24,314 nucleotides of DNA, from the IMG/VR virus record IMGVR_UViG_3300025652_000534, positions 1-24,314 of that record; one strand, 5' to 3'. A model generated the notes under the pieces. That model saw nothing but the letters and a program-made list of their open reading frames with translations, was not told the origin of the DNA and made no database searches. Each line of letters opens with the position of its first letter. The first letter of the stretch is position 1. The position numbers and the translations under genes are program-made. This DNA is from a virus. Taxonomy: Duplodnaviria; Caudoviricetes. Shown in pieces: positions 482 to 22,417 of the stretch.

Positions 482-859
482 TTAATTAATTGTTGGGTCT
501 TGAGGAGCAACCGTCATGCCAGTGATAAAGCCGCGAGTGTTACGCTGCACATTAAACTGGTAATTAGGTCTTTCCACCGGTGGTGGTGTCTTCATCGCTG
601 TGACCAGTTTCTCTAACGGTCTCATGTCAACGGTGCCGCCCTTGAAGTTCGCAAGCGCTTCTGTGAGCTGGTTCAACGCTGTCGCTATCGCAACGCTTTG
701 ATCCTGGACAGACTGTTGCTGTGCCTCAGTGATCGCTCTCAGCTGATTCAGTACGTCCTCAAGACCCTCAATCATCAGAGGCTGATCATCAGGTGCCTCA
801 ATAGATGCGCCGCCATCCAGCAGCTTCGTTAGTTCTTTTATCGATAGTTTACGTGGCAC
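482..859 (-). CDS. Hypothetical coiled-coil protein of the virion module
   Basis: 125 aa. GAGGTG RBS, abuts the upstream stop, heptad-like central helix, C-terminal beta-hairpin-like FNVQRNTRGFITGM. Confidence 0.6.
   Translation of the reverse strand: MPRKLSIKELTKLLDGGASIEAPDDQPLMIEGLEDVLNQLRAITEAQQQSVQDQSVAIATALNQLTEALANFKGGTVDMRPLEKLVTAMKTPPPVERPNYQFNVQRNTRGFITGMTVAPQDPTIN
506..522 (-). promoter_or_regulatory. Sigma54 (RpoN) -24/-12 promoter box
   Basis: Minus strand CTGGCATGACGGTTGCT (GG-N10-GC), about 36 bp upstream of the ATG at 470. Confidence 0.7.
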
Positions 860-3064
860 TTATAAACACCTCACTAATTGTTCAACGACATTCCGTCGCT
901 GCATGGTCGCATCGAACACCTTTTGAGCAGGCTGGGTAATGGTAACAGTTCCTTGAGTACCTTCCACCTCAACCTCTTCACTGATCGTTGCGTCGCCAAA
1001 ATCTTGCTTGGCACTGAGTGCAGGCGTTTGACTCAGCGTCTCTTCACTCAGTCGAGCCATCTCACCGGTTTGTGGGCCTTCCACTGTAAAGCCGAACCGG
1101 TCAAATGCCTCTTGAACACCAATGTTTTGTTCTTTTGCAAACACCACCATGCGAGCAGCAACGAAGTCTGACATAACCTTCGCGTGCTGCGGGAGCACTT
1201 CACCGGAATCAATCAGCTGTCCTTTCACGGTGTCAACAATTTGCTGCGCTTCGACATACTGGCTGACGTTCTCATTGGCCACGTTAGCCGCGTAAGCCAT
1301 GTGATCAGCGAATGCTCTCTCAGCGTTCTCTTGCTGGAAGGGGCTGTTAACTTCTTCACTCAGGCTCATGCCTTCACGCAGTGCATCAAAGTGCTCTGTG
1401 CCGGTCATGTCAGCCGCGACATCTGCGATCGGTATCACGATGTCAGTTTTCAGTGCCTCAGACTCACCCAACTTCTCACTCAGCAGGGTCAGTGCTGGAT
1501 CCGCATTGATCTCCTCGTCTGTCTTACCCTGAAGGTAGAGCGTGGTGAGATCCGCATCGATAAACAAATGGGTATTTTTATCTTTGTCTGCTTTTTGAAC
1601 AAAGTCACGGAAGGTGTCCACACTGTGTTCTTTCAGTTTTGCGTCAGCGGTTGATTCGTTAATCGCGTTTATTTGAGCCTGCTCGTTCTGGGCAAGCTGT
1701 GCTTTCGCTTGCTTGTTTTGATAAACCTGGATCAAAGTACCCGGCGCACCAAATGCTACCGCTGCCTGTGTTCCTTTCTCAAAAGACTCAGCGACTCGAT
1801 CCCACATTTGTTCATCGAATAAAAGGTCTACTAAGTCCCCTGGTGAGGCATCGTCAAACGAGCTCTCATCCATTATTTTCGCAATTTCACCGGTAAAGAT
1901 GGTGACAAATTCCTGTGCGCCCTCGGTGAATCCTTCCGCAGCTACTGCTGCCGCATAACCAGCCGCTATCCGACCGAAAACTGCTCGACCGGATTCTGTC
2001 AATAATGCGTTCTTAACCCGGCTGCGAATAGCAAACCGGACAGCAGGGCTGACGGTGCGACCAAAGCCGAATAACAGCGACGCTGACTCAAGTCCCGCGT
2101 TGACTATGCCAACAGCAAGCGCCCCCTGGTTGGCCAGTTGCTCATCGAGCACATTTCCCTGGTCATCAGTCATTCCAATAAATTCAGAACGAGCAAGGCC
2201 ACCCTCCAAAGTGAACGCCTTGAGTGCTACGCCAAACTGAGCACCCATTTTAGCGCCGGGTACGCCTGTTGCGACATAAGTGGCAAGAGCACCAGCAGGG
2301 CCAGTAGTGAATAGTGCTGCTGCCGTAGGAACACCGCCCGTGACAACTGAGCCTACAGCGGCCCCTTGAAGCGCCCCGCCGCCTATTTCAAACAGGATGG
2401 GAAGCTGCTCCGCAGCGGTTAATGGGATTTCAGTAAGATAGTTTAAGTCCGTGCTGAGGAGTTCTTTGCTTTGAGTCTCGGTTAACTCGGTCAGACGAGC
2501 AAGGTCTTCAGGTGACGCTGGCTCTGAGCCAAACAATCCCGCCATCATCTGCTTCGTATGAATATCAGCTATCTCAACATTAGCAGCACCGCGATGGTAA
2601 GAAGTGCCAATGTCCGTGAGATAATCATTACCGCTGTCGATGTCTTCATCAAGACGGTTTTTAAAATCTTTGTTTAAGTTATCAAAAGCACTTTCAATTT
2701 TCTGAAGGGTAGGGATATCGTCGTGCGCTATGGCCGCATTTTCATACTGGCTCAAGTGCTCGTATGTCACCGGGTTCTTCTGGGACATGTTGTAGAAATC
2801 AATACTGTCTAACTGTTGAGTGCGCTCGACCGCTTCAGGGTCCGCTTCAACAGCGGCAGGGGGCATCCCTGATTGCTCTGACAAGAGCTTTGTCTTAACA
2901 AACTGCTCAGGGTTCACCTTCATCGCTTCGTTGAGCGTAGGGCGTAGTTGCTGAGACTGTTCGACTTGTGCGAGGTTTAGCTCACCGACGGTTTCATCGT
3001 CAACAGCAGGAGCACCGGTTGCAGTGACTGCATCCCAGTTAACATTATCAATATTAAAGGCCAC
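860..3064 (-). CDS. Internal virion (DNA ejection) protein, large type
   Basis: 734 aa. Third gene after the GNAT gene in podovirus order, Gly/Ala-rich hydrophobic segments, AEGFTEGAQE motif typical of ejection proteins. Confidence 0.7.
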   Translation of the reverse strand: MAFNIDNVNWDAVTATGAPAVDDETVGELNLAQVEQSQQLRPTLNEAMKVNPEQFVKTKLLSEQSGMPPAAVEADPEAVERTQQLDSIDFYNMSQKNPVTYEHLSQYENAAIAHDDIPTLQKIESAFDNLNKDFKNRLDEDIDSGNDYLTDIGTSYHRGAANVEIADIHTKQMMAGLFGSEPASPEDLARLTELTETQSKELLSTDLNYLTEIPLTAAEQLPILFEIGGGALQGAAVGSVVTGGVPTAAALFTTGPAGALATYVATGVPGAKMGAQFGVALKAFTLEGGLARSEFIGMTDDQGNVLDEQLANQGALAVGIVNAGLESASLLFGFGRTVSPAVRFAIRSRVKNALLTESGRAVFGRIAAGYAAAVAAEGFTEGAQEFVTIFTGEIAKIMDESSFDDASPGDLVDLLFDEQMWDRVAESFEKGTQAAVAFGAPGTLIQVYQNKQAKAQLAQNEQAQINAINESTADAKLKEHSVDTFRDFVQKADKDKNTHLFIDADLTTLYLQGKTDEEINADPALTLLSEKLGESEALKTDIVIPIADVAADMTGTEHFDALREGMSLSEEVNSPFQQENAERAFADHMAYAANVANENVSQYVEAQQIVDTVKGQLIDSGEVLPQHAKVMSDFVAARMVVFAKEQNIGVQEAFDRFGFTVEGPQTGEMARLSEETLSQTPALSAKQDFGDATISEEVEVEGTQGTVTITQPAQKVFDATMQRRNVVEQLVRCL

Positions 3065-4685
3065 TGTTATACGCCCTCAAGATGGTCTCAGCCGTTATCG
3101 GTATGTCGTGCTCGATCAGTCCCTTACGAATAGTAGCGATCTGCTTCTTAACCGCACTGCTTCCACCGAGTGTAGTCGCCACAGTGTTCATCGCCATGAG
3201 CTCAGCGACGGGAGTGTTTCTGGCGGTGAGTGTTTTATCAAACATCAAGAAGTTATTCTCGAGAACAAACTTGCTCGTGGTGGAGTTAACCAGGGTGGCC
3301 AGCTCTGACTGAGTTAGCTTCGCTTTCTTAGACTCTTCTGCGGCAAAAACAGCATCCTGCATGGCTTCATAAAACTCATCGACCTTCTTGCCTTCCTTCT
3401 TGCCAAACAGTGTTTCAGCAGCTCGCTGCATAGTCTGGTGCTTACTGCGCAGGAACGTGTTGTGCTTGCCTGATTTCGCGCCATCAATCGTCGTGCGAAC
3501 TTTACCGAGGTCGGCAGGCGAGAGGTCATTAGTGTACTTGGTCCAATCCAGCGACGCTTGATCAGAGGGTGACATTGCTAAAATACGATTGAACACCGCT
3601 TGATTCGTAACAGTCTTTTTACCTGCTCGCAACTTGTCCTTCTGGGTTCTCGTTAAGTCGTCCCATTGCTCAGGGGCGACAGAGATGAATGCTTCCACTG
3701 AGACATTATCGTCGAAGACAGTCTGTTGAGCACTCTCCCAGGCGTCAGCCTTACGTTCTTTCTCAGCCTTAGCCTCCTGGTTGTACAGGCGAGTTATCTC
3801 CTGACGGGTAGACTTACGCAGCTCAGGATCAGCAATCTCCTCAGCGGCATCGAGCGCCTCTTGACGAGTAGCGTTTGCTCGCTTGATCGAGCTTGCGTTG
3901 TTGATGGCAGTAGTCGCATCACTCTGAGTTTTCTCAGCCTTTTGCTTTTTCACAAGTTCTGCCTGCAACTTCAAACGGTCTGGACCTTCCAGTCGGTTGT
4001 CCAGTTTGTCGAGTAATTCTTCCCCCGCAGCAGCGTTATTTGCTGTCGCAGCTGAAATAGCAGCAGAGGCAAAAGATGATCGGTAGGTCTCGAGACTTTC
4101 GTTCAATGCCTCACCGTCGAGCCCCTGCTTAGCACCGATATCGAGGATAGTCTGTTCACCGATGGATTCCTGCTCACGCAGGCCATCAGGATCGTTCCAG
4201 CTCACCACGGCGTTTTCAATGGTGTTTTCCACCGACGCCTTCATTGTGGCGACTTCCCAGGCATCGAGCCCTTTGGTGGCGTGTTGGCTAATGCTGGCAT
4301 TCCCACGGGTAACATGCTGCTCTGCAACACGGTCAAACAACCGCTTGGAGTGCTGATTGGTCAGCCCTTCACTGAACTGCTTCTTCAGCTCACCCAGTGA
4401 ATTGGTGGCATCCTCAGCACTGTCATAAGCAGTACGACCCTGAGTCTTGAAATAACCGGTGTCAGGATTGAAAAACATGTCATTTTTAGCACGTTCAAAC
4501 TGCACCGCTGCTTCTTCAGCCTCAGTGGTAGCAATGCGCTCCTGCATTATGCCGACGCCCTTGCCTAGTGCAGACACCCCTTCACCGAGCTGACCTAAGT
4601 TACTGGCAGGGAGAGACTGAGCACGTGCGCCTTTTGTGATGTTAGTCTCAATTTTTTGGAGACCGTACTGCTCTACCTTCGGCAT
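3054..4685 (-). CDS. Internal virion (ejection) protein, T7 gp15-position equivalent
   Basis: 543 aa, helical and Ala/Glu/Lys-rich, MPKVEQYG-type N-terminus, coupled to its neighbours. Confidence 0.7.
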   Translation of the reverse strand: MPKVEQYGLQKIETNITKGARAQSLPASNLGQLGEGVSALGKGVGIMQERIATTEAEEAAVQFERAKNDMFFNPDTGYFKTQGRTAYDSAEDATNSLGELKKQFSEGLTNQHSKRLFDRVAEQHVTRGNASISQHATKGLDAWEVATMKASVENTIENAVVSWNDPDGLREQESIGEQTILDIGAKQGLDGEALNESLETYRSSFASAAISAATANNAAAGEELLDKLDNRLEGPDRLKLQAELVKKQKAEKTQSDATTAINNASSIKRANATRQEALDAAEEIADPELRKSTRQEITRLYNQEAKAEKERKADAWESAQQTVFDDNVSVEAFISVAPEQWDDLTRTQKDKLRAGKKTVTNQAVFNRILAMSPSDQASLDWTKYTNDLSPADLGKVRTTIDGAKSGKHNTFLRSKHQTMQRAAETLFGKKEGKKVDEFYEAMQDAVFAAEESKKAKLTQSELATLVNSTTSKFVLENNFLMFDKTLTARNTPVAELMAMNTVATTLGGSSAVKKQIATIRKGLIEHDIPITAETILRAYNSGL

Positions 4686-8542: not shown

Positions 8543-8545
8543 GGT

Positions 8546-9539: not shown

Positions 9540-9541
9540 AC

Positions 9542-10032: not shown

Positions 10033-11031
10033 TTAAACTACACGCTCTTCGCTGTTAAGCAGTGAGTCAGTTTCACGAATAGGAATACCGCGATAAGTCA
10101 TTACTTCCTTACCTTCGATTTCCATAGGCTTCAGACGAACAAAGCTGTCAGAGGCTCCGGCATTAGTTGCCAGTGCGTCTAGTGCTTCGAGCACGTCACG
10201 GTTACAGTAGATCGCCATATTGCCACCGGCAACACGACGCGTTTGCAACTTGTAGTAAGCCTTACGCAAGAAGTCATACAGAGCAACACTACCAGCTTGC
10301 ATGAGACTCACGTCAACGTTCGCAACGCGAGAGACATAGCGCCAGTCTTTAACCGCTAAACCAACATGCCAAGTGAATTTCTCCTCTTTGGCGTAGTAAG
10401 GGTTGTTGCTGCCATCGAGCACACGTTGACGACCCATGTCTTCGCGTTGAACGCCTGCCATCGTACCTTTTGGATACAACAGCTGACATTGATTATCGCC
10501 CCAGGTTACGAACCAGATCGACGTATTGTCGGATCCAGTACCACCGGCATCGATGATCTGATTGCCGTTTGGTGCGCTCAAGTCATTAAAGCGTGGAGTC
10601 AGACCCATGAACTCTTCAGGATCAGAAGCCGTGTTACCGTAGAACAGTTTGGTCGAAACTTCCTGGTTCATTGCTTCCAGGTAGCTCATCGCTTCACTCA
10701 GGCGTACTGCGCCTTCATTAGTCGAAAGACCCAACAGACGCTCATCAATAGTGCTTAAGCCTTCAACGAAACCAGTGGTGTCTTCAACTTGAGCCTTGCC
10801 AGATTTACTCTGAGCAATACCCTGGTACAGACGACCCCAGGCAACAGATGGTAGACCTGTGCGAACGGTGTGCAGGTGAGTTGTGCCCTTGTTACATTCG
10901 ACAGCAATAGCGTCGTCAAGAACAGGGTTCATTTCAGCAAGCATTTCGATAACTTCAATAAATTGACCGTTACCGTCTTGCAATTTGTATACGTCGATTA
11001 GATCGACAAAAGTGGCACCGAGAGTAGCCAT
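10033..11031 (-). CDS. Major capsid protein (BPP-1 Bbp17-like, HK97 fold)
   Basis: 332 aa with HLHTVRTGLPSVAW, LFYGNTASDPEEFMGL, GTGSDNTSIW, GLAVKDWRYVSRVANVD and RGIPIRETD motifs. Confidence 0.93.
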   Translation of the reverse strand: MATLGATFVDLIDVYKLQDGNGQFIEVIEMLAEMNPVLDDAIAVECNKGTTHLHTVRTGLPSVAWGRLYQGIAQSKSGKAQVEDTTGFVEGLSTIDERLLGLSTNEGAVRLSEAMSYLEAMNQEVSTKLFYGNTASDPEEFMGLTPRFNDLSAPNGNQIIDAGGTGSDNTSIWFVTWGDNQCQLLYPKGTMAGVQREDMGRQRVLDGSNNPYYAKEEKFTWHVGLAVKDWRYVSRVANVDVSLMQAGSVALYDFLRKAYYKLQTRRVAGGNMAIYCNRDVLEALDALATNAGASDSFVRLKPMEIEGKEVMTYRGIPIRETDSLLNSEERVV

Positions 11032-11046
11032 AATAGTATTACCTCA

Positions 11047-11688
11047 TTAAACGGGTGGGTATAAAACAGACAGTCGATCCTTTGGTGTTGTAGGAGGGGT
11101 TCCCCCACCGGGGTTGTCCTCTTTCATCAAAGCGCCGACGTTACGCATAGCGCGAATCATCTCAGGATGATTACCTATACCTGTCTCTTGTAGTAGTGCG
11201 TTGAGTGCTGGCGTTCCAATTTTCTCTAACGCTGATTGCGCAAGTGCGACAGTTTCGTCGAACTTCTCACCACCCATTTCTGGGTCAGCCTTAGATTGGT
11301 CGTGCCAGTCTTGCTTGAGCTGTTCGTATGCACCCGCTTGCTCCTCAAGTGTTTGCTGCACTAACCCAGCCGCGATATCAACGTACTTCTGCGCTTGTTC
11401 TTGGTTAAGGCCATCGGCTTTAAAAAGCTCGGTAGCACTCGCCATAGACTCCGCTTGAAGTTCCATCTCTTCCGGTAGGGTGAAATCAGCAAACGACCCA
11501 GGGGCAATGTCGCCTTCGGAACCGCTTTCTTCTGCCGGGGACTCCTCACCCGCAGCAGTAGAACTGTCATCAGCAGGCGTATCACCCGCTGGTGGTGTGT
11601 TTGTATCAGCAGGCGTATCAGCCGCTGGTGTTGCAGCAGGGGCGTCGCCCGTTGCTGGTGTTGCTACTACTTCTTCTTCAGGTGGCAT
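11047..11688 (-). CDS. Capsid scaffolding protein
   Basis: 213 aa. Acidic Pro/Ala-rich N-terminus, FKADGLNQEQAQ, TGIGNHPEMIR, C-terminal VLYP; directly upstream of the capsid gene. Confidence 0.85.
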   Translation of the reverse strand: MPPEEEVVATPATGDAPAATPAADTPADTNTPPAGDTPADDSSTAAGEESPAEESGSEGDIAPGSFADFTLPEEMELQAESMASATELFKADGLNQEQAQKYVDIAAGLVQQTLEEQAGAYEQLKQDWHDQSKADPEMGGEKFDETVALAQSALEKIGTPALNALLQETGIGNHPEMIRAMRNVGALMKEDNPGGGTPPTTPKDRLSVLYPPV

Positions 11689-11959
11689 TTGTCCAGTTCT
11701 CCGTTATCATTAGCGCAAATTTATCAGGTGCTGCTTCTTTCAATTTATCAACGAGCTCCACGGCATAACCGCGTCTCCCGCTGAAGTAAGCATTCAAATG
11801 GTCGTCTCGATCAAAAACTTCATTGAAATAGCCCATGTCATTTATCATGCCAAATATCATTCGGCGAGCATTCGCGTTCGATAATACCTCAGTGATCTCG
11901 GCTATTTCAATGTTTTCTGCATTTTCCGTGCCAACTTTGCCTTCATCACCGGGGATCAT
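11678..11959 (-). CDS. Bbp19-like protein
   Basis: 93 aa between portal and scaffold, with VLSNANARRMI...AYFSGRRGYA pattern. Confidence 0.7.
   Translation of the reverse strand: MIPGDEGKVGTENAENIEIAEITEVLSNANARRMIFGMINDMGYFNEVFDRDDHLNAYFSGRRGYAVELVDKLKEAAPDKFALMITENWTNAT
11918..11934 (-). promoter_or_regulatory. Sigma54 promoter box upstream of scaffold/capsid genes
   Basis: Minus strand TTGGCACGGAAAATGCA (GG-N10-GC, one mismatch at the -12 element). Confidence 0.65.
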
Positions 11960-13617
11960 GCTGCACCCGCGCCTTGCATCAAGGTGTCGATAGTGCCGCC
12001 TTCTGTCATGTCCACATCAGATACGGTTCTGGCAGTGTCGGCCATCTGTTGACCCTGCTCCATCGCCGCTTGTTGTGCTGCTGCCTGCTGCTCTGCTGCA
12101 ATGATCTGTTCAACTTCGTCATCGCTACGCACTACAGAAGGGTTCACACCCAATGCTTCAGCGTACTCATCGATCGCCTGAGCTTCATTAATCTTGTGGC
12201 GAGCGTTCGGCCATACTGCGGCCATGTTGCCAGCAAACGCGGTCAGCTGATCGATAGCACCGACAGCAACCATACGTTGCGCTTGTGCCAATACAGACAC
12301 GTACTCCACCTTGAGCTCACTGTTTTGCAGTGCTTCTGGGGGTGCAGGCAATACGCCGTTCGCTTGTAGGATGTCGAAGGTGCGGTCAATCAATGGATCC
12401 AGCAACTCGGTGTGAAGTCGTTCAAGCACCGGTCCCAGCATCAATAGTTTCTCTTCGTGCTTCTCAGCCACCTCGCGAGCGGTGATCTGCTTGCGGTCGC
12501 TGTTGGCCAGCATCAGGAACAGATCCTCATAGAATGCGCGCGATATACGCTGCTCTACTCGGTTGTTGATGCCTTCGATCGAGTTAAGGTCTGGGCGATC
12601 ATCATAAATCGACCGTAGTCCTGTCTGATCAGTCGTGGCAATCTTGTCACCAGCTCGAAGGTTCTTGGCTTTGCGGATTAGCGCGGCTGGGCCTTGTAGG
12701 GGTGGATCAACAACACGATCCAACGCCTGATACAGTCGGCGCTCACCGAGCTGTAATGTCTTAGTGTCACCCAGGCCTGTCATGCCTGGACAGTCTGTTG
12801 CGTAGATATCTTCACCGGTAACTTCCCAGCGAGGAGCCAGGATTGGAAAGGTATCAAAGCCGGACTGACGCAAAAATTGGTTGCTCTTCAGCGTGCTCGA
12901 GCCCACTTCATAGTAGACAGAGCGGTATTTCTTGTCCTTCGCCATAGGACTAATGTGGTCACGGTCGTCATTCGGTTCGATCAAGTGGACAATCTTCACA
13001 GCAGCTTCAGTGTTGCCCTTGTTCCATTGATCTTCCACGTGAGTACTACAGTTTTCAATACCGAACTCTTTCACGGTCTGACCGACGGTGTACTCATACT
13101 CGCGGTAGAACGTGTCCACCACGCTCATACCATTCATGCCGAGCATGTAGCTGCCCACCGTATAAGGGCGGCAACGGATCACACTGTCGAAGTCTTCAAA
13201 TACACCCATCGGAGCAGTGCCGAACACGCCCAATTCAGAATACACAGTGTGCAGCACGTTATACGTATTTGACTGCGCAAACACCTCATACATAATTTGC
13301 TGTACGCGGTGCAAGTATTGTGCAACATCGGCTTGCTCTTTCAGCCCAGGGTCAGACGTGCCCAGGCGAAACCATGGTCTAGCAGGCGAAGTGATACCCG
13401 CCATCATGCCTGACGCTAGTGTCCTGGAAGCAAGACGGCTTGCATTGTTAATTTGTTTGGTGTCGCGTCGATGGCCTTTGTTGTTATCTTCAACCAGGAA
13501 ACGCCCCCGGTGAGACAGATGGTAATCACTCAGGTCTCGATACAACGGAATGAAGGAAGACCGTTCTGAGCTCAGCATCTTTAATCGTTTGTTGAACGTC
13601 TGGACAGTCGGCTTCAT
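11956..13617 (-). CDS. Portal protein (head-tail connector, Bbp21-like)
   Basis: 553 aa with LASGMMAGITSPARPWF, FGTAPM, ITAREVAEKHEEKLLMLGPVLERL and VEYVSVLAQAQR motifs. Confidence 0.95.
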   Translation of the reverse strand: MKPTVQTFNKRLKMLSSERSSFIPLYRDLSDYHLSHRGRFLVEDNNKGHRRDTKQINNASRLASRTLASGMMAGITSPARPWFRLGTSDPGLKEQADVAQYLHRVQQIMYEVFAQSNTYNVLHTVYSELGVFGTAPMGVFEDFDSVIRCRPYTVGSYMLGMNGMSVVDTFYREYEYTVGQTVKEFGIENCSTHVEDQWNKGNTEAAVKIVHLIEPNDDRDHISPMAKDKKYRSVYYEVGSSTLKSNQFLRQSGFDTFPILAPRWEVTGEDIYATDCPGMTGLGDTKTLQLGERRLYQALDRVVDPPLQGPAALIRKAKNLRAGDKIATTDQTGLRSIYDDRPDLNSIEGINNRVEQRISRAFYEDLFLMLANSDRKQITAREVAEKHEEKLLMLGPVLERLHTELLDPLIDRTFDILQANGVLPAPPEALQNSELKVEYVSVLAQAQRMVAVGAIDQLTAFAGNMAAVWPNARHKINEAQAIDEYAEALGVNPSVVRSDDEVEQIIAAEQQAAAQQAAMEQGQQMADTARTVSDVDMTEGGTIDTLMQGAGAA

Positions 13618-13827
13618 CTAGGCACCCAATAGGACTTTGGTAGGAGCATTTGCAGCAGTAGTCGTGCCACGGGTGGAGGTCAAGATAGTACTGTTTCCTG
13701 ACTTGCCTTGACTCGCTCTGCGGCGACGCTTGTCTGTGTCACCGGCTGAAACGGGTTGTCCGTCAGGGGCTGTGGGCGCTTCAGGGAGTTGAGGTAGAAC
13801 TTTTGGTTTTGATTTACTGCCGCACAT
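13618..13827 (-). CDS. Small conserved pre-portal protein
   Basis: Likely ATG at 13827 (AGGTG RBS): MCGSKSKPK...STILTS...KVLLGA, the usual small gene between terL and portal. Confidence 0.75.
   Translation of the reverse strand: MCGSKSKPKVLPQLPEAPTAPDGQPVSAGDTDKRRRRASQGKSGNSTILTSTRGTTTAANAPTKVLLGA
13654..13670 (-). promoter_or_regulatory. Possible sigma54 promoter box upstream of portal
   Basis: Minus strand GTGGCACGACTACTGCT (GG-N10-GC), about 37 bp upstream of the portal ATG; lies inside a coding region. Confidence 0.45.
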
Positions 13828-13853
13828 ATTAGGCACCTGTAGAAGTGTGGGTA

Positions 13854-13870
13854 AGCAATAGTTGTGCCAA
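13854..13870 (-). promoter_or_regulatory. Sigma54 promoter heading the virion structural operon
   Basis: Minus strand TTGGCACAACTATTGCT in the intergenic gap after terL. Confidence 0.8.
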
Positions 13871-13890
13871 GTTTACCGCTGTGCTTGCAG

Positions 13891-15420
13891 TTAGTCTAGT
13901 GGGTTGTAATCGTGGTGGTCCTGCGTGCGCACACCCAGTGCCGCATCATCCATGCCGCGAGCTTCCTCACGCGGTGGTACTTCATAGGCAAACGTCAGTG
14001 CTAGAGCATCACCCCAGTCGGGCGACTTCAGTCCACGCTTCTTCATGGCGTCCTTCATCTCGAGCACGAGCTGATCCTTCCGGTTGTGGCTGTACTCTCG
14101 CCCAGTCAGGTCGCTTTCAAGCTCAGGGTCATCAGGTATGGACCCGCCTTTCATCAGCCATTCACGCATACGTGCCCACATCTCAGCAGCTTTGTTCACG
14201 TTGTACTTTGGTTGGTCAGCAGTAGAACCGAAGTTCACACCGATACAGTGATATCCCAGCTGGACCATACGGTCACAGATAGGTCCACCCAGGCCTGTTT
14301 CATCGATGAACATCACATCAGGACGGTGACGCTCGTATAATGTGGTTAACAGTGACACCACGCGCATAGAGTCGCGAGACTTCTCGCCAGGGATCCTATA
14401 CACCTTCTCACTCATGGCATCGCGACCGCGACGGAATTGAATCATACAGTTATCATCACCCCCGCGTGCTAGATCAACACCAGCGATGAGTGGATCATTG
14501 CCGACATACTGCCCAGCCCCTGCCTTCATTGCATTGAATACAACGTCAGCCGGTATAAACTGCATATCACTACCACGTGGGAACACACCACGCACACGCA
14601 CCCTGAAGAAGTCAGAGTCTTCACCCCAGTCATCTTCCCACTGTTTGATCAGTGTCTTGTTCGTCATCTTCGCCTTGCGGCTGTCGATCTGGCGTGTATT
14701 CCACCGGTGGGATGATCGACCGAAGCACTCACGGAAGCGCCCACTGTTACGCGTCGGGTTCCCGAACACGAAGAACATAGGCTCCCCATCAGTCAGTCCG
14801 CCTTCTGCTACTTCCCAAATCTTATTGGGTACAGCTGACGCTTCGTCAAAGATGTAAAAGGGGGTGGAGGATGCACTGTGTAAGCCTGCAAATGCTTCAC
14901 TGTTCTCTTCGCGACAGGTCTGAGCATCCACACGCCATGACTCAGCGTGATCACGGTGATACAGGGACATGGAGCCGCGACCGTTGTTGTACTCGAACCA
15001 GTGGCCAACAATACAGCGTGAACGCCATTTGCCTAACTCGCCCCAGGTCTTCGTTCGCAGCTGGTCAGAGGTGTTAGCCGTCACAATGCCTTTAGCGTGC
15101 GGTCGTGTGGCCATGATCCACAGTATCAACCACGCCGTTAACGCAGACTTGCCAATACCGTGGCCAGATGATGTCGCCTCTCTGATAGGCTCAACAGGTG
15201 CTACACCGTTGAACCCACGCCTGCGTACTTCCTCACCGATCTCGTTTAAGGTGTCGCGCTGCCATTCATCAGGACCATCAAAGCCTTCAAGCTCACCAAC
15301 GCCCCAGTCAAAGGCCCACATGACGAACCCAAGCGGATCAGCGTAGAACTGAGCCACATCGTCAGCCAGCAGCAATTCAATGCTACCTTCACCGGCAATC
15401 ATGGTTTGTTCGATACTCAA
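13891..15420 (-). CDS. terL: Terminase large subunit
   Basis: 509 aa. Walker A SGHGIGKS, Walker B YIFDEAS, motif III GNPTR, RNase H-like AGVDLARGGDD and SPDWGDALAL. Confidence 0.96.
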   Translation of the reverse strand: MSIEQTMIAGEGSIELLLADDVAQFYADPLGFVMWAFDWGVGELEGFDGPDEWQRDTLNEIGEEVRRRGFNGVAPVEPIREATSSGHGIGKSALTAWLILWIMATRPHAKGIVTANTSDQLRTKTWGELGKWRSRCIVGHWFEYNNGRGSMSLYHRDHAESWRVDAQTCREENSEAFAGLHSASSTPFYIFDEASAVPNKIWEVAEGGLTDGEPMFFVFGNPTRNSGRFRECFGRSSHRWNTRQIDSRKAKMTNKTLIKQWEDDWGEDSDFFRVRVRGVFPRGSDMQFIPADVVFNAMKAGAGQYVGNDPLIAGVDLARGGDDNCMIQFRRGRDAMSEKVYRIPGEKSRDSMRVVSLLTTLYERHRPDVMFIDETGLGGPICDRMVQLGYHCIGVNFGSTADQPKYNVNKAAEMWARMREWLMKGGSIPDDPELESDLTGREYSHNRKDQLVLEMKDAMKKRGLKSPDWGDALALTFAYEVPPREEARGMDDAALGVRTQDHHDYNPLD

Positions 15421-15887
15421 AAGAAGGTTTCTTGATCAGGATCAGCAGCAGCAGCGTTTCGCTCCCTGCCACGCTTCAGGCGCTCCAACAGTTCAGCATT
15501 GGTGTTCACTTCCACCTTCAACTCTTTCGCGACGAAGGCGTCAACCATCTTATGCTTGCCGATGTTGACCAGGGCAGCAGTAGAAGCGGGAATGTTGCCT
15601 TGCTGCCGTGATAACGCGTGATTGTCCACAAACTCATAGAGCAGCCACTCAGCATTGATTAGAGACAGGTCTGTGCGTTGTGAAAGGATATAGGCGACAG
15701 CTTGTTGAACGTGAGGCTTCTCGATCAACTGGGTGCCATAGTCAGGCGAATAGCCAGATGCCTCCGCCGCTCGACGCGGTGAGCAGTCTTTCATGTACTC
15801 ACTGACAAATAGTGCTTCCTTGAAGCTCAACTGAACATCAGGAACACTACCGTCAACGAGCTGGTGAGCTGATATGCGTTTCTTCAT
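15417..15887 (-). CDS. terS: Terminase small subunit
   Basis: 156 aa with the N-terminal HTH LSFKEALFVSEYMKDCSPRRAAEASGYS; ATGA-coupled to terL. Confidence 0.88.
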   Translation of the reverse strand: MKKRISAHQLVDGSVPDVQLSFKEALFVSEYMKDCSPRRAAEASGYSPDYGTQLIEKPHVQQAVAYILSQRTDLSLINAEWLLYEFVDNHALSRQQGNIPASTAALVNIGKHKMVDAFVAKELKVEVNTNAELLERLKRGRERNAAAADPDQETFF

Positions 15888-15905
15888 GTGCCGCAGTTTA
15901 ACCCT

Positions 15906-15922
15906 TTGGCACGGTCTTTGCT
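15906..15922 (+). promoter_or_regulatory. Sigma54 promoter box, antisense to the HNH-like gene
   Basis: TTGGCACGGTCTTTGCT, a full consensus match, in the terS/HNH gap. Confidence 0.75.
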
Positions 15923-16277
15923 AGAAGAATGAAACAGGTTTCCCGGTGTACAGGTTAGCCCACCGCAGATCACGATGGTCTCCATTGCGAAACTTCACAC
16001 GCCCTTCAGGGAACTCGCCTGTCATCTTCACCCATAACAGCTTGTTTAACGGGAACACCTTCCCCCTGACCTGTATACACCGCAACACATAAGACTCGTC
16101 CCAGGTGCCAGGGTAATACCTTATGGCCTCATGTCCAGCAGGCTGACCGGCAAACCGACGATTCCAACCCTTGCCAAAACGCTCATGCTTGAACTCCGAC
16201 AGGAGACGTTCTCGCCACGTCACCGAGCCGGTGATAGAGTCATAATTTATTAGCTTTGCAGCTTCGATATACTTCAT
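15921..16277 (-). CDS. HNH endonuclease-like protein, catalytically degenerate
   Basis: 118 aa. YDSITGSVTW...AG...LLWVKMTGEFPEGRVKFRNGDHRDLRWANL follows the phage HNH_3 pattern but lacks DH and DN. TAGGAGA RBS. Confidence 0.75.
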   Translation of the reverse strand: MKYIEAAKLINYDSITGSVTWRERLLSEFKHERFGKGWNRRFAGQPAGHEAIRYYPGTWDESYVLRCIQVRGKVFPLNKLLWVKMTGEFPEGRVKFRNGDHRDLRWANLYTGKPVSFF

Positions 16278-16699: not shown

Positions 16700-16702
16700 G
16701 AC

Positions 16703-16742
16703 AAAATAAATCCTTGACCCCCCCTCCATCACGTATTACAGT
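16703..16742 (+). promoter_or_regulatory. Sigma70-type early promoter
   Basis: A-rich UP element, TTGACC (16714-16719), 17-bp spacer, TACAGT (16737-16742), then AGGAGA RBS and ATG at 16768. Confidence 0.75.
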
Positions 16743-16767
16743 GTCTGACAAATCACAGGAGAACGCC

Positions 16768-16920: not shown

Positions 16921-16922
16921 TC

Positions 16923-18442: not shown

Positions 18443-18443
18443 T

Positions 18444-18483
18444 GTTTATCAGGTGATCTTCTCACGAGGGTCACCGAGTAAAC
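18444..18483 (+). other. Intergenic RNA stem-loop (processing site or terminator-like)
   Basis: GTTTATCAGGTGATCTTC-TCAC-GAGGGTCACCGAGTAAAC, with no U tract, just before the next RBS. Confidence 0.55.
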
Positions 18484-18499
18484 TCACAGGAGAAAGACC

Positions 18500-18862
18500 A
18501 TGTTAAAACGAGAACTAGAAGCACGAGTAAAACTGCTAGAGGAGTCCATCGCTGTACGTCGCCTGGACTTCGACGAAGTTGAAGACCAACGCAACGATGC
18601 ACTTGATAAGGTCGAAGCCTTAGAGGAGCAAATTGAAGTACAGCGCATTAATAACCGGGGGTTGCTCGAAGACATCGACCAGCTTCAGGCATTGAAGGGC
18701 ACGTTCAAGGATGCCACGTTAGAGATCAACCGGATCCGTCGCGACACTAACGACGCTCGCATCATGATCTATACGATCAGAGAGACCTTCCAGGACAACA
18801 ACGCGGTGTATAACGCGATGGTATGCCTGCAACAGTGTCTGAGTGGTGACCTCAGTGAGTGA
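18500..18862 (+). CDS. Hypothetical coiled-coil protein
   Basis: 120 aa, CTCACAGGAGAAAGACC-ATG, long heptad pattern. Confidence 0.8.
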   Translation: MLKRELEARVKLLEESIAVRRLDFDEVEDQRNDALDKVEALEEQIEVQRINNRGLLEDIDQLQALKGTFKDATLEINRIRRDTNDARIMIYTIRETFQDNNAVYNAMVCLQQCLSGDLSE

Positions 18863-19295
18863 TCCCATCGAGAACTTGCTGAAAGCCACGGCTGAGAACA
18901 GCATCATTGTCACCACCAAAGAAACGGACATGCCAACCGATGAGCGCTCGATCGCCTTCATGATAGCTATCCGGGCTTTGATCCTCGTCGCCGACACACA
19001 CAATAACGAGACCTCGTTCAAGTTTCAGGACTCAGACCAGGGACCAATGATTTCCGTTGACGGGCCAATGGCCGATTCGCTGCGCATCCTAACGGGTTTG
19101 TACGTTGCCACCCTGGTGGATGTGGCGAAGATGATGGATGTTAAAACAGGCCTGAGCCATAATAACTACGAAGCCGGCTTGGACACGCTGAAGTGTCTCC
19201 TTGAGCCGGTGGCCATTAACGCCAGCATGTCACGTGAAGACATCAAGTACTTGGTGACTATCTATTTGGAAGCACTCGAGGAGACGCTAGTATGA
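18855..19295 (+). CDS. Hypothetical protein
   Basis: About 146 aa. Start uncertain (GTG 18843 or 18855); ATGA-coupled to the next gene. Confidence 0.7.
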   Translation: MSDPIENLLKATAENSIIVTTKETDMPTDERSIAFMIAIRALILVADTHNNETSFKFQDSDQGPMISVDGPMADSLRILTGLYVATLVDVAKMMDVKTGLSHNNYEAGLDTLKCLLEPVAINASMSREDIKYLVTIYLEALEETLV

Positions 19296-19513
19296 TCTCG
19301 CTGAACAGAGGGAAGTACGACGAGCGCGAGGAGCTCAAGCGTAAGACAGATGAGTTCCTGGCCAACGGTGGCGAGATCCAGGTGTTGGGGATCACTGAGT
19401 CCAAACAGTACTCGGGGGTGAATGAAACTGTCCAGTCCGCAGCACTCGGTAAGGCTCGTGAGAAGCGCGGCCCAGGCATCACCATCACACCAGGGAGTCG
19501 TAACCGTGGATAG
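19292..19513 (+). CDS. SutA-like RNA-polymerase-binding domain protein
   Basis: 73 aa. KYDEREELKRKTDEFLANGGEIQVL resembles the SutA core (helix + EFLxxGGxIQ). GAGGAG RBS. Confidence 0.6.
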   Translation: MISLNRGKYDEREELKRKTDEFLANGGEIQVLGITESKQYSGVNETVQSAALGKAREKRGPGITITPGSRNRG

Positions 19514-19715
19514 TCTCGAGGTAATGCACAAGGCCGGTAGGGTGTCGGCAACAGCTCACACACCTGAGCAGATCGCCATCGCTGATCAATACCGCCATTT
19601 GGCTGTTAAGTGGTGCGCGAAGAGAACGCGGTATGATTTAGAGGCACTGCGTCAAGTCGGGATTGTATACGATCAGGGACGGAAAGGCCTATCCCTAGAC
19701 AGGAGTAAACTTTGA
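19506..19715 (+). CDS. Hypothetical protein
   Basis: Probable GTG at 19506 with GGGAG RBS, overlapping the upstream stop; 69 aa. Confidence 0.6.
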   Translation: MDSLEVMHKAGRVSATAHTPEQIAIADQYRHLAVKWCAKRTRYDLEALRQVGIVYDQGRKGLSLDRSKL

Positions 19716-19783
19716 CCGATGTTTTACTCGGCTTCACCGCTTGGGGGTTCGTCTTCCTCGCGGTGTGGCTTGGTACACAATGA
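19712..19783 (+). CDS. Putative 23-aa membrane peptide
   Basis: AGGAG RBS at 19701, TTGA overlap; MTDVLLGFTAWGFVFLAVWLGTQ. Confidence 0.45.
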   Translation: MTDVLLGFTAWGFVFLAVWLGTQ

Positions 19784-19861
19784 GTCCTTCCGCATCCATG
19801 CGACCACCTCGTCATAGTAGATTACCGCTATAACAAAGATCCAGAACCCGAACACTTCCAT
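19724..19861 (-). CDS. Putative 45-aa membrane peptide
   Basis: TGATG overlap with the primase stop; MEVFGFWIFVIAVIYYDEVVAWMRKDSLCTKPHREEDEPPSGEAE. Confidence 0.4.
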   Translation of the reverse strand: MEVFGFWIFVIAVIYYDEVVAWMRKDSLCTKPHREEDEPPSGEAE

Positions 19862-22407
19862 CACACCACCCTCATTGTCGGCTGACCATCAACCACTTTC
19901 TTCTGTTGAAGGTAGGCATCATACCGCTCACGTGCTGTCATTGTCTTATAGTACTCCGCATTCCTGAACGCCCATAACGTCACCTTCTCATAACCAGTGT
20001 GCGCCGCCAGTTTGGAGCAGAAGGTGATAGCGGATAGAACATGCCCTAGTCGGGATGGTGTCATCGCTCGCAGGTCGGTGTATTCATACTCGGAATCCTG
20101 TAGGACGCAGCTTTTCATCGCCAGGATCACATCGTTCACCGTCAGTAGATCAGACGCAAACATACCCTGCTTACGCTTAACAAACGACTCAACGCATAGC
20201 TGTATTGGTGTCTTAGATGCCTCACTGATGTCACGCAGGAAGTCAGTTACCGGTGGTGCTGTTGACGGGTTAAAGCGACTGACGTCTACGCAGTTGCGCA
20301 GGTACCAGATGCACGCGTCATCACCCCCATTGTCCATCCAGGTCCAATGATCAGCCCAGTACGCTTTCCATTCGGGCGTCATGTTGTCTTGCCCATCTCG
20401 CACGTTCAAGTCAGACCACACGCAGAAGAACCGGCGAGTGGGACCGTTCAGTCGCAAAGGGAGCTGGCTGTTAGTGGTCATGGTGCCGTTGACGATGTTG
20501 CGTACCTGGATCCGTTTGATCCCTTTCTGATTGATTGATAGTTTCTTTGGTGGTGCTGTTGCGATGGGTTTCAGCTTGTTACTGACCTCAAGCGCCTCTT
20601 TACGATCGCCCAGCTCAGCCTCGTTGATGTGCAGGTACTTGGTCCGCAATAGGTATTCTTGGAAGTCACTCAGCAGCTCGTCACCGCTGATCGTTGTAGC
20701 ATTCTCACCGAGCGCCTTCATCAGTGGCGCAAGTAAAAAATCTTTGCCTGCCCCTTCGGGCGATCCGAGTAGCATCATGTGATTGATTTTGTTTTCAGGG
20801 TGTTGAACGGTGTAGGCCATCCACTCGAGCATGTGCTGCCGGTGCTCACTCCACCCCATCAGGGTCCAGTGGTTAAGCCATCTTTCTACATCACCAGCCG
20901 TACCACTCACCTCGCTGACCTCAGACCACGCGTTACCGTACACAATACCCTTCTCCTCGAAGATGCGTGGCTTCTTAGGCGCATAGTCCAGCTTATCCAC
21001 CTTCTGCACTCTACCCATCTGTAAGGCGCTCTTGCGAGCTTCCTCGTCTTCATGGGCGAAGCTGTTTTGAAAGCCCTCGGGTGTATAGAAAATACCCGTG
21101 TTGTGGTCGTACAGCTGATTTTGTTCTTTGATAAAGATGACGTCGTTGAAGAACTCGTTGATCGCATCGTCACCGCTGTACCATTCAGCACGTAGCCCAG
21201 TCAGGATCGTCTTCGTGTCCTGCTTGCTCCACCCCATTAGCTGTCGCAGTTCTTCGTGATTGCTCTGTCGCTCCATCACCCCCATGTCTTCCATTACACG
21301 AAGGGCCACTGCTGCGATGTCACGCGCTTCTGAGCTCGCGGGATTGATCCGCTTTAACTCATCCATCGCCTCCTTTAACGGGTCACCGATCGTCTCAACG
21401 ACGCTGGTGGGTGCGGCATCCATGAAGCTGACGGGCGCAGGTGCAGGAGCTGCGGCCGGAAGGTCTTCGAACATTTTACTGTTCTTCCAGGTCGTCAGCG
21501 TTTTTTTGAAGTCTGGGTCTTGCTCATCAACCCAATGTAAAAGGTCTCTAGCGGTACGCTCTTGACATGCCCCGTGGTGACACTTAAAACCAATAGACCG
21601 GTCTTCATTGGTGAAGATCGCTGCGCCAGAATCGTCTCCACCGGTGTGCTCTGCAACCCACGGGCAGATAATATCGAATCGACCATTACTTCGCTCCTCT
21701 TTGATATGGATCAAGTCGGGGATATTAATTAGGGGGTGATCAGGTATGGCCGCAGCACCATCGACTCGAGCCTCACGACGTGGTGCATCAAGGTTAACCT
21801 GGAAGGGCGCAGCTAGTTGTTCCAGTGTGACGGTGTTGAAGGGGTTCCACAACAACATGGCGCACTTGAACGGCTGACCATTCACAAGTTTAGACGCTTT
21901 GTTGTTGTACCCTTCAGGTAATCGGACGTACCGCGTTACCCCTTTCATGCCGGGATCTTTGCCAGCGGGAGCCAAACCATTAGCCACCAGACCATCAAGC
22001 AAGTTTTCCACTCGGCCTCGGTCGGTGCAGGGTGTATCGAGAATGTACCCCCACTGCTCTGACCCTGGTGACGTCTCGAGGATCCACGACGGTGATGGCA
22101 GCTTTTCAACTTCCACCATGTCTAGCTTTTCCTTCACGTCATCGAGCACAATCACCCGAGTATGACGAAAGAGAACCTTACGACGGCGAGCAATCCCCTG
22201 GGCATCACCGTAGAAATGGCTGATCGTGAAGTACTGGTTGCTCACCGGTTTGAATTGACAGCGACTAAAGTAGTCACCCTTCCAGGCAGCTAAGTGGAGC
22301 CCTTTCGGGATGTTGCTCGGGTCTTCTGTAAAATCTGTGACGTGAGTAAATGGTGTGTCGTCGGCGAATATCGCCCTCAAAAAGTTCTCATTAGAGACTG
22401 TTGGCAT
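19861..22407 (-). CDS. Primase-helicase: RepB'-type AEP primase + Zn-binding domain + SF3 (DUF5906-like) helicase
   Basis: 848 aa. IVLDDV and PSWILETSPGSEQWGY (RepB'-like primase), CPWVAEH...FKCHHGAC (Zn), Walker A GSPEGAGKD, Walker B LHINE, motif C MTTN, RRFF. Confidence 0.9.
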   Translation of the reverse strand: MPTVSNENFLRAIFADDTPFTHVTDFTEDPSNIPKGLHLAAWKGDYFSRCQFKPVSNQYFTISHFYGDAQGIARRRKVLFRHTRVIVLDDVKEKLDMVEVEKLPSPSWILETSPGSEQWGYILDTPCTDRGRVENLLDGLVANGLAPAGKDPGMKGVTRYVRLPEGYNNKASKLVNGQPFKCAMLLWNPFNTVTLEQLAAPFQVNLDAPRREARVDGAAAIPDHPLINIPDLIHIKEERSNGRFDIICPWVAEHTGGDDSGAAIFTNEDRSIGFKCHHGACQERTARDLLHWVDEQDPDFKKTLTTWKNSKMFEDLPAAAPAPAPVSFMDAAPTSVVETIGDPLKEAMDELKRINPASSEARDIAAVALRVMEDMGVMERQSNHEELRQLMGWSKQDTKTILTGLRAEWYSGDDAINEFFNDVIFIKEQNQLYDHNTGIFYTPEGFQNSFAHEDEEARKSALQMGRVQKVDKLDYAPKKPRIFEEKGIVYGNAWSEVSEVSGTAGDVERWLNHWTLMGWSEHRQHMLEWMAYTVQHPENKINHMMLLGSPEGAGKDFLLAPLMKALGENATTISGDELLSDFQEYLLRTKYLHINEAELGDRKEALEVSNKLKPIATAPPKKLSINQKGIKRIQVRNIVNGTMTTNSQLPLRLNGPTRRFFCVWSDLNVRDGQDNMTPEWKAYWADHWTWMDNGGDDACIWYLRNCVDVSRFNPSTAPPVTDFLRDISEASKTPIQLCVESFVKRKQGMFASDLLTVNDVILAMKSCVLQDSEYEYTDLRAMTPSRLGHVLSAITFCSKLAAHTGYEKVTLWAFRNAEYYKTMTARERYDAYLQQKKVVDGQPTMRVV

Positions 22408-22417
22408 GATTATTGCT
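22401..22417 (+). promoter_or_regulatory. Sigma54 promoter box overlapping the primase start codon, antisense orientation
   Basis: TTGGCATGATTATTGCT; its CAT (22405-22407) is the primase ATG on the other strand. Confidence 0.72.

Follow-up and report, generated by a model that had tools for sequence, protein, structure and literature searches.

Background

To our knowledge, no bacterial sigma family other than sigma-54 can stay stably bound to a promoter and not fire. The RpoN consensus used here is TGGCAYR-N4-TTGCW, with an invariant GG-N10-GC spacing. According to PMC4551910 and PMC4591121, the sigma-54 holoenzyme is inactive at the majority of the sites it occupies, and where such a site overlaps a sigma-70 promoter, competition for the DNA can repress that promoter. 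PMC4551910 describes such repression for the overlapping sigma-70 promoters of argT, chaC, mdfA and patA in E. coli; by its account, the bacterial promoters known to be repressed by sigma-54 are few.

Among phages, the only precedent found in open-access full text is Pseudomonas phage YuA, whose annotated sites match the consensus poorly, and no case of sigma-54 repressing phage promoters was found in the same literature. The late promoters of YuA, treated by Ceyssens in 2008, are reportedly sigma-54-dependent. YuA is a siphovirus, and the phage described below is a podovirus.

The window analysed here is the whole of a stretch of 24,314 nucleotides from a virus of the Caudoviricetes. Its initial annotation had interpreted six -24/-12 boxes as a regulon through which host sigma-54 runs late transcription. 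Our present results suggest that host sigma-54 is likely a brake on packaging, head and replication genes, and not simply a reader of promoters.

Results

Genomes, scoring and boxes

The window is 99.2% identical to the complete record G001 (46,960 bp). Its source is an uncultured podovirus (short-tailed phage) with a BPP-1/epsilon15-like head module; a host search across genome contigs gave two distant and uninformative matches of 35-40% identity. The genes concerned are:

10033..11688, minus strand: putative scaffold/protease (11047-11688) and major capsid protein (10033-11031); phrog_458, phrog_212, PF20911
11956..13617, minus strand: portal (head-tail connector); PF12236, phrog_332
13891..15420, minus strand: terminase large subunit (TerL); phrog_2
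15417..15887, minus strand: terminase small subunit (TerS); phrog_51, PF03592
19861..22407, minus strand: primase-helicase (RepB-type primase and DUF5906); phrog_1156, PF19263, PF16793

All six annotated 17-mers are present in the sequence at their positions and on their strands, each with GG-N10-GC spacing:

506..522, minus strand: sigma-54-type box near the end of ORF 482-859 (3' side); the ATG of ORF 111-470 follows after 35 nt
11918..11934, minus strand: sigma-54-type box in codons 9-14 of a Bbp19-like gene, lying 7 nt upstream of a sigma-70-like -35
13654..13670, minus strand: weaker sigma-54-type box, in codons R-G-T-T-T-A at the 3' end of ORF 13618-13836; the portal ATG follows after 36 nt
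13854..13870, minus strand: sigma-54-type box between TerL and the head operon
15906..15922, plus strand: sigma-54-type box directed away from TerS, 18 nt upstream of the TerS ATG
22401..22417, plus strand: sigma-54-type box over the ATG and RBS spacer of primase-helicase, directed away from the gene

Sigma-54 and sigma-70 matrices were both set by hand from consensus frequencies. Boxes of at least 14 bits are called strong, and boxes at homologous junctions were accepted from 13 bits. The six window boxes score 15.8-19.9 bits, the least supported being 13654 (15.8 bits); additional one-mismatch sites at 13310 and 18920 reach 10.5 and 12.9 bits. Three of the six (506, 11918, 13654) lie within coding sequence, another spans the primase ATG, and a further one shares letters with an HNH stop codon. 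In several boxes some letters are supplied by the protein sequence: the TTGGCAT half of box 22401 is the complement of the primase Met-Pro codons, and Asp/Asn-Ala codons or E-A-S-A-V-P in TerL contribute elsewhere.

The claim that four full consensus matches would be rare by chance was borne out, as the window holds four, where 100 dinucleotide shuffles average 0.04 and never exceed 2; with one mismatch allowed there are eight sites against 1.15 (largest 4). G001 carries six perfect and five one-mismatch boxes, compared with one match of a reversed-pattern control. Its ten strong sites contrast with 1.09 in 200 dinucleotide shuffles and, in the codon-shuffled comparison that the annotation had proposed, with 1.25 (maximum 5) in 300 codon-preserving shuffles, where perfect boxes never exceeded one. 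Codon-preserving shuffles of other genomes gave the same picture (G051, 12 versus 0.86; G052, 5 versus 0.51; G053, 7 versus 0.56), G051 and G052 being non-independent records. The boxes had also been placed at or near gene boundaries, and indeed six of the ten strong G001 sites fall into gene-start windows covering 9.4% of the genome (p=1e-4). None of the 201 differences between window and G001 lies inside a box, versus 12 in the flanks, which is not significant (p=0.14). As a set, the RpoN-type boxes are genuine and beyond chance.

Candidate readers of the boxes

In seven box-rich records TGGCA-N6-TTGC occurs 22 times against 1.8 expected, a count that is partly circular because the records were chosen with the same matrix. 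In these records neither the spacing variants of -1 and +1 (0 and 2 versus about 2) nor four symmetric variants (0, 3, 0 and 17 versus 0.4, 2.9, 3.1 and 19.4) are enriched. The outer positions fit the polar RpoN pattern (Y 38/40, R 31/40, W 35/40). With a polar motif, exact spacing and unenriched symmetric variants, the reader is most likely host RpoN, as had been assumed.

The absence of an encoded activator, noted earlier for the window, extends to the complete genome. Sigma-54 activator (PF00158) and RpoN (PF04552) domains had no match in G001, G051, G052, G053 and G013, two of which are complete, and six-frame translations of six records contained no GAFTGA-like or RpoN-box motif. Pfam, PHROG and NCBIfam scans of 36 window, 23 further G001 and 26 G051 ORFs revealed no activator or RpoN-mimic family. 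No protein was found that is common to the complete box-rich genomes, G001 and G051, yet absent from box-poor ones. Three candidates for a box-specific reader were rejected: a ribbon-helix-helix-like protein is clade-wide and present in box-poor genomes too, a small zinc-finger ORF occurs in G051 and G013 and not in G001, and a SutA-like ORF in G001 and G013 and not in G051. In a low-power search for a shared enhancer, the 200 nt upstream of seven G001 junction boxes showed no common dyad or 7-mer beyond random. One-mismatch IHF sites accompany only two of the ten G001 boxes, with a background of 7%.

Position and direction in relatives

The positional conservation that the initial annotation proposed to test holds for some relatives only: boxes recur at homologous positions, and 84 of 123 sequence clusters have none, so that box carriers are a minority of the clade. 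In a quick tree search the six box-rich rows among 54 require four changes; a single origin is also possible. The recurring sites are four homologous junctions, namely the primase start, the region upstream of TerS, the TerL end and the 5' end of Bbp19, with boxes of at least 13 bits in 3/12, 3/57, 7/83 and 6/49 clusters (self included) and none at any junction with a reversed-matrix control. Junction boxes co-occur within the same phages (p=0.003 and 0.007, self left out).

The primase box keeps its place and direction in G051, G053, G013 and L111. At the other three junctions direction differs between relatives. The TerS box is antisense also in the closest relatives, L361/L362 (portal 80% identical; the comparison there covers boxes 11918, 13654, 13854 and 15906), and sense in L168, G052 and L005. 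The TerL-end box is sense in six of seven clusters (L361/L362, L168, L171, L005 and L022 among them) and antisense in L102. The Bbp19 box has an identical copy in L361/L362, is sense in L005, and keeps its register in L168, L171 and L022, where it is antisense. Non-coding boxes are preserved in diverged relatives; box 13654 is not retained in the closest ones, where the homologous site scores 7.5 bits.

Four of the six window boxes point toward the transcribed gene, yet direction flips at three of the four junctions, as that of a promoter for the downstream gene could not. The proposed rule, sense on virion genes and antisense on non-structural ones, fails: box 15906 is antisense upstream of TerS, a packaging gene, and G001 has a sense box within DNA polymerase and an antisense one in a tail-region gene. 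Among 41 boxes classified in six box-rich records, 21 lie deep in genes, 16 of them antisense, and 11 of the 19 start-proximal boxes are sense.

Predicted sigma-70-type promoters

Four boxes overlap or adjoin the footprint of a predicted sigma-70-type promoter, namely 11918, 13854, 15906 (weakly, for TerS) and 22401:

11881..11910, minus strand: predicted sigma-70-type promoter TTGAAA-18-TATTAT, facing the scaffold and major capsid genes
13870..13898, minus strand: TAGACT-17-TAAACT, a sigma-70-type promoter predicted at the end of TerL, with homologues throughout the clade
15895..15923, minus strand: TAGCAA-17-TAAACT, a weak sigma-70-type promoter predicted 7 nt ahead of the TerS ATG
22413..22441, plus strand: TTGCTC-17-TACACT, a predicted sigma-70-type promoter that uses the -12 half of box 22401 as its -35

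The first T of box 13854 is the last T of the predicted -10, and the box covers the predicted sigma-70 start site. In L361/L362 the -35, -10 and box of this junction are retained despite a diverged spacer. The gene-sense element at the TerL end reaches p<=0.1 in 32 of 58 box-free rows, and the seven box-bearing rows combine to p=0.005. At the Bbp19 junction such an element beats flank shuffles (p<=0.02) in all six box-bearing rows, and at the primase junction G051, G053 and G013 have stronger sigma-70-like homologues (11.8-12.9 bits) that overlap the box.

The TerS promoter, whose -35 and spacer are spanned by box 15906, would yield a leaderless mRNA. Alone it is weak (p=0.26 against flank shuffles), and three box-bearing rows combined give p=0.052; its homologues read TTGCAC-17-TAAACT in G051 and, by eye, TTGACA-18-CAAACT in L361. 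Box 15906 is unlikely to serve as a promoter for the early genes of the plus strand, because these have their own TTGACC-17-TACAGT at 16714. Across IMG/VR, TAAACT directly precedes a box in 56 matches, compared with 13 for a reversed-hexamer control. As a general -10 it was rejected: no -35 signal at 17 nt was present in 37 clusters, so TAAACT alone is no evidence of a -10.

Discussion

A proposed brake made of host sigma-54

We judge the chance to be even that host sigma-54 holoenzyme binds the boxes as an inactive closed complex, occluding the predicted sigma-70-type promoters beneath them. Sigma-54 RNA polymerase would dock on the boxes and park there, blocking the promoters at the small-terminase, head-operon, scaffold/capsid and primase junctions. 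Repression might lift once replicating phage DNA outnumbers the host sigma-54 pool, and the roughly ten boxes per genome, intragenic ones included, would add to this titration. Release by titration would make late expression dependent on genome copy number and on the availability of host sigma-54. Against a brake speak the weak sigma-70-like elements at TerS and the lack of a convincing overlapping one, in the promoter scan, at 506 (where an element at 496-469 is weak only) and 13654. In E. coli, moreover, intragenic sigma-54 is reported in PMC4591121 to form no roadblock, and half of the phage boxes lie deep in genes.

A brake at the primase junction is unfit for a simple early/late timer because replication must come first. 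We are doubtful of a further version, a genome-copy counter, in which the host sigma-54 pool would clamp packaging and capsid promoters on a single genome and replication would free them. The phage-shock, motility and nitrogen genes of the host would likewise lose sigma-54 to these sites, and the phage would do without a late regulator of its own at this stage.

If sigma-54 does act as a brake, the phage would have a repressor, and perhaps a timer linked to replication, at no cost in protein-coding sequence, and the sigma-54 state of the host would bear on its development. Relatives with flipped boxes and relatives without boxes are natural controls for the short junctions.

Alternative explanations

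The sense boxes may instead be true sigma-54 late promoters, switched on by an enhancer-binding protein of the host, either free in solution or bound to an enhancer that escaped recognition, with antisense boxes making interfering transcripts. We regard this as unlikely, despite a geometry compatible with true promoters in all four sense boxes of the window. The predicted +1 of boxes 506, 13654 and 13854 leaves leaders of 17-26 nt with RBS-like words, the RBS of ORF 111-470 staying intact behind box 506, and the predicted +1 of the G001 tail-fibre box is the A of the ATG. The prevailing sense direction at the TerL end and the small sense majority near gene starts agree with promoters, as do the description of YuA as relying on sigma-70 as well as on sigma-54 (PMC10914365) and the ability of truncated DctD to activate diverse sigma-54 promoters in Salmonella (PMC3844500). 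Against the same reading, and with it the earlier claim that host sigma-54 runs late transcription, speak the flips at TerS, the TerL end and Bbp19, the mostly antisense deep intragenic boxes, and the few or no boxes of most clusters. Neither a phage activator nor a shared upstream dyad or 7-mer was found in the searches above, IHF-like sites are few, and activator-free sigma-54 transcription is described in PMC4551910 as rare in vivo. Box-free relatives also retain gene-sense sigma-70-like elements at the TerS, TerL-end and Bbp19 junctions.

Replicating phage DNA could also act mainly as a decoy that soaks up sigma-54 holoenzyme and damps sigma-54 regulons of the host, for instance those for phage shock, flagella, pili or nitrogen, promoter placement being secondary. 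The many deep boxes suit such a role, which PMC4591121 proposes for intragenic sigma-54 sites in E. coli, and at the synonymous codons of E-A-S-A-V-P in TerL four box-rich phages score highest, among the top five of 71 clusters. A pure decoy could lie anywhere, whereas the boxes return at the four homologous promoter junctions and gather around the starts of genes; the TerL-internal box is absent from the window's own phage (6.0 bits). We consider this explanation improbable.

A different reader, a dimeric regulator of phage or host using the dyad core GCA-N7-TGC in either direction as operator or activator site, is very improbable. The Bbp19 core is invariant and in one register in five of five aligned phages regardless of box direction, and the clade encodes the ribbon-helix-helix-like protein. 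The shared register is, however, also explained by Asp/Asn-Ala codons fixing one half, and unenriched symmetric versions, RpoN-like outer positions and the lack of a protein confined to G001 and G051 argue against such a reader. Chance or a by-product of coding, which the letters lent by conserved codons and the loss of box 13654 in the closest relatives might suggest, is hardly credible and already disfavoured for the whole set by the codon-preserving shuffles and the retention of non-coding boxes in diverged relatives.

Comparison with known systems

In core sequence and spacing the boxes resemble canonical enhancer-dependent sigma-54 promoters of the glnAp2 and pspA type. They differ in that the searches turned up neither an enhancer or IHF pattern nor a gene for an activator, and that their direction is untied to the downstream gene.

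As with YuA (PMC10914365), a phage that has no RNA polymerase of its own is connected to host sigma-54 through its virion region. On our hand-set matrix, the three annotated -24/-12 fragments of YuA (NC_010116) score 6.5, 0.5 and 3.5 bits, two of them containing good sigma-70-like elements, and no site in its genome reaches 14 bits. The window boxes, in contrast, are near-consensus, bidirectional and present on a replication gene as well. YuA-type late transcription would call for sites that are sense only and precede virion and lysis genes, whereas here antisense boxes occur at TerS and primase and a sense one within the DNA polymerase gene.

A further parallel comes from enterobacteria, whose silent and intragenic RpoN sites are portrayed in PMC4591121, PMC3844500 and PMC7657599: many of these are intragenic, on one strand or the other, with binding in an inactive state, and ChIP-supported Yersinia sites resemble the window boxes. 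By these accounts sense intragenic sites are over-represented in E. coli, unlike the mostly antisense deep sites of box-rich phages.

The E. coli argT, chaC, mdfA and patA sites, as described in PMC4551910, were tested in vivo and in vitro at scattered host genes; the phage case is a prediction. In both, the footprint of sigma-70 polymerase, predicted for the phage, is overlapped by a -24/-12 site, no activator would be required, and C is kept at -12, in the window in six of six boxes. Unlike the E. coli sites of that report, the phage boxes belong to a phage genome, point either way, and recur across lineages at four homologous junctions.

Phage genome and relatives

The window represents one half of a podovirus genome whose virion module resembles those of BPP-1 and epsilon15; it matches bases 22564-46876 of G001, a complete record of 46,960 bp that has terminal repeats, at 99.2% identity. 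Gene content is as follows.

Window, minus strand: virion module with TerS, TerL, portal, scaffold, GP7-type capsid, tail tubes, internal proteins
Rest of window: HNH gene, small plus-strand gene block, primase-helicase
G001 half outside the window: RHH-like protein, DUF2800 exonuclease, SSB, dUTPase, DNA polymerase, SNF2 helicase, lysis and tail genes

The ORFs scanned in the window and the rest of G001 gave no match to an RNA polymerase or a sigma factor. The nearest cultured relatives are Vibrio phages (capsid 82-84%, TerL 63-65%). A relative, Vibrio phage 1.185.O (L084, MG592551.1), carries four annotated CRISPR spacers at 28101-28318. The HNH gene (15921-16277, minus strand) has 83% protein identity in L360, a near-identical genome, versus 99-100% for neighbouring genes. 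The largest internal virion protein is divided between two genes, one of 734 aa and one of 2232 aa, that flank six others (window 860-3064 and G001:C1:12448-19146); its counterpart in the relative G051 is a single fused 2794-aa gene.

Strong sigma-54 boxes and their conservation

All six -24/-12-type (RpoN) boxes proposed in the initial annotation were located, at 506-522, 11918-11934, 13654-13670 and 13854-13870 (minus strand) and at 15906-15922 and 22401-22417 (plus strand). The window holds 4 perfect consensus matches (0.04 expected) and 8 when one mismatch is allowed (1.15 expected). The weight matrix was hand-set from the consensus, with 14 bits or more defining a strong site. The scan of the complete genome against codon-preserving shuffles, a check suggested at the outset, found 10 strong sites in G001 versus 1.25; dinucleotide shuffles gave 1.09 at this threshold. 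Further strong boxes in G001 are:

inside the DNA polymerase gene, sense
inside the large internal protein gene, sense
upstream of the tail-fibre gene, sense
within a 618-aa tail-region gene lacking annotation, antisense

Gene-start windows make up 9.4% of G001, yet hold six of its ten strong boxes. The box set is real and selected. Strong boxes were also found on 56 IMG/VR viral stretches (L289-L344, 37 clusters), nearly all outside this clade and some with a second box nearby (L296, L334, L340); such boxes appear to be common among uncultured phages.

Portal, TerL, capsid and primase searches provided 222 loci of relatives, grouped in 123 clusters. Strong boxes were absent from 84 clusters, single in 25 and numbered three or more in seven, the phage itself included. 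Fourteen near-complete box-poor genomes had 0-2 sites apiece, and four cultured Vibrio phages had 0, 0, 0 and 1 strong boxes. The box-rich relatives contain:

G051 (complete): 12 sites
G053: 7 sites
G052: 5 sites
G013: 4 sites
G002: 3 sites in 8 kb

Positional conservation, the other comparison initially suggested, is present in a minority of clusters: boxes of at least 13 bits occupy four homologous junctions, namely the primase start (3/12 clusters), TerS upstream (3/57), the TerL end (7/83) and the 5' region of the Bbp19-like gene spanning box 11918 (6/49), and the reversed-matrix control gave 0 at each. Junction boxes tend to occur in the same phages; one of the TerL-end hits (L041) and two of the Bbp19 hits (L225, L227) sit at other offsets. 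In L361 and L362, which are the closest relatives (portal 80%), the TerS, TerL-end and Bbp19 boxes are retained, oriented as in the window, and box 13654 is not. A quick portal tree (54 rows, six box-rich) needs four changes and is also compatible with a single origin. Within TerL, synonymous codons of E-A-S-A-V-P form an antisense box in G051, G052, G053, G013 and L115, which is absent from the window's own phage.

Orientation of the boxes

The proposed rule of sense boxes on virion genes and antisense boxes on non-structural genes fails, even inside G001, because direction varies at homologous junctions and counts by position are mixed. At TerS, the window and L361/L362 have an antisense box, and G051, G052 and G002 a sense box; at the TerL end six clusters have a sense box and G053 an antisense one; the Bbp19 box, in the same register throughout, points in the sense direction in the window, L361/L362 and G002 and in the antisense direction in G051, G052 and G013. 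Only the primase box, half of which is the complement of Met-Pro codons, has constant direction. The 41 boxes classified in six records comprise 19 close to gene starts (11 sense, 8 antisense), 21 well inside genes (5 sense and 16 antisense, of which two are Bbp19 boxes placed there by automatic start calls) and one left unclassed.

Reader of the boxes

Judged from sequence, the boxes are most likely read by host RpoN. In seven box-rich records the polar pattern occurs 22 times versus 1.8 expected (a partly circular figure, as the records were chosen with the matrix), spacing variants and four symmetric variants stay at chance level, and positions left free in the pattern search conform to the RpoN pattern; this favours RpoN rather than a homodimeric reader, even though GCA-N7-TGC, the core, does not vary at Bbp19. 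The initial annotation had noticed no activator in the window, and the wider search agrees: sigma-54 activator domains, RpoN DNA-binding domains, GAFTGA-like motifs and RpoN-box motifs were not found in any of five box-rich records, of which two are complete. No protein is common to G001 and G051 yet missing from box-poor genomes, and no enhancer-like motif is shared upstream of seven G001 boxes, a comparison of low power.

A 73-aa ORF (19292-19513, plus strand) is similar to the domain by which Pseudomonas SutA binds RNA polymerase (PF20661, E 2e-6, just below the cut-off). It is a candidate modulator of host polymerase and may hint at a gammaproteobacterial host; of 26 related records, the two that have it (G001, G013) are box-rich, but the complete box-rich G051 lacks it. 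The RHH-like protein (G001:C1:341-535; 17 homologues) is clade-wide, the first gene of the exonuclease-SSB-polymerase operon and usually close to the primase start; it is a likely autoregulator.

Overlap with predicted sigma-70-type promoters

Four window boxes overlap or adjoin -35/-10 pairs predicted with a sigma-70 matrix set by hand from consensus frequencies:

TTGAAA-18-TATTAT, placed 7 nt beyond box 11918
TAGACT-17-TAAACT, whose last T is the first T of box 13854
TAGCAA-17-TAAACT, enclosing box 15906
TTGCTC-17-TACACT, which begins within box 22401

Boxes 506 and 13654 lack a convincing partner of this type. Support was assessed against shuffles of the same regions. At the TerL end, gene-sense elements reach p<=0.1 in 32 of 58 box-free rows (antisense 10), these rows being mutually related, and have a combined p=0.005 in the 7 box-bearing rows; in L361/L362 the spacer has diverged while -35, -10 and box are all retained. 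Gene-sense elements are supported at Bbp19 in 6/6 box-bearing and 9/40 box-free rows, and at TerS in 13/47 box-free rows, with three box-bearing rows marginal (p=0.052). Strong divergent elements (11.8-12.9 bits) overlap the primase-start box in G051, G053 and G013, that of G051 facing the RHH-exonuclease-polymerase operon. Since such elements are supported at these junctions, box-free relatives included, the boxes look like an overlay on promoters already present in the clade.

TAAACT precedes a box in 56 IMG/VR matches versus 13 in the control; the hexamer alone proves nothing, because a -35 at 17 nt gave no signal in the 37 clusters. The TerS start codon lies 5-7 nt past the predicted -10 with no RBS (window 15887-15900; homologues in G051 and G052), which suggests a leaderless mRNA.

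Possible function

Selection on sigma-54 binding, not firing, would be the simplest reading compatible with the orientation flips. Closed sigma-54 complexes may clamp packaging, head and primase-junction promoters, a proposal to which we give an even chance. The sigma-54 content of an E. coli cell is of the order of 100 molecules; at about ten boxes for each genome, some tens of copies might exhaust the pool and release the clamp. Sigma-54 occupies most of its E. coli sites as inactive holoenzyme and was no roadblock within genes (PMC4591121); it represses overlapping sigma-70 promoters there through DNA competition (PMC4551910), and its intergenic sites in Yersinia had effects of both signs, positive and negative (PMC7657599).

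That sense boxes are true sigma-54 promoters is unlikely, though their predicted starts give RBS-bearing leaders. A decoy role would fit boxes deep in genes and may coexist with clamping; we consider it quite improbable. A simple timer fits poorly with a clamp at the primase junction.

Comparison with known phage systems

Sigma-70 and sigma-54 use has been described for phage YuA (PMC10914365). Its three GenBank-annotated -24/-12 fragments score 6.5, 0.5 and 3.5 bits on our hand-set matrix and its genome has no strong box on that matrix, so YuA is a loose precedent only. In two of these fragments (NC_010116.1, L286, 38392-38570 and 47152-47312) the sigma-70-like elements are good and the matrix detects no consensus sigma-54 box; it may be worth re-examining the published assignment. 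The phage AAA+ protein Htm is proposed, in a 2026 preprint (10.64898/2026.10.06.757011), to act on E. coli sigma-54 polymerase; our family-level search gave no AAA+ activator-family match. No publication on near-consensus sigma-54 boxes over phage sigma-70 promoters was found in phage-directed searches of open-access full text. Of the sigma-54 late regulon first proposed, host RpoN as the most likely reader stands; given the direction flips and the overlap with sigma-70-type elements, the boxes are best filed not as such a regulon but as a putative phage-borne variant of sigma-54 promoter occlusion.
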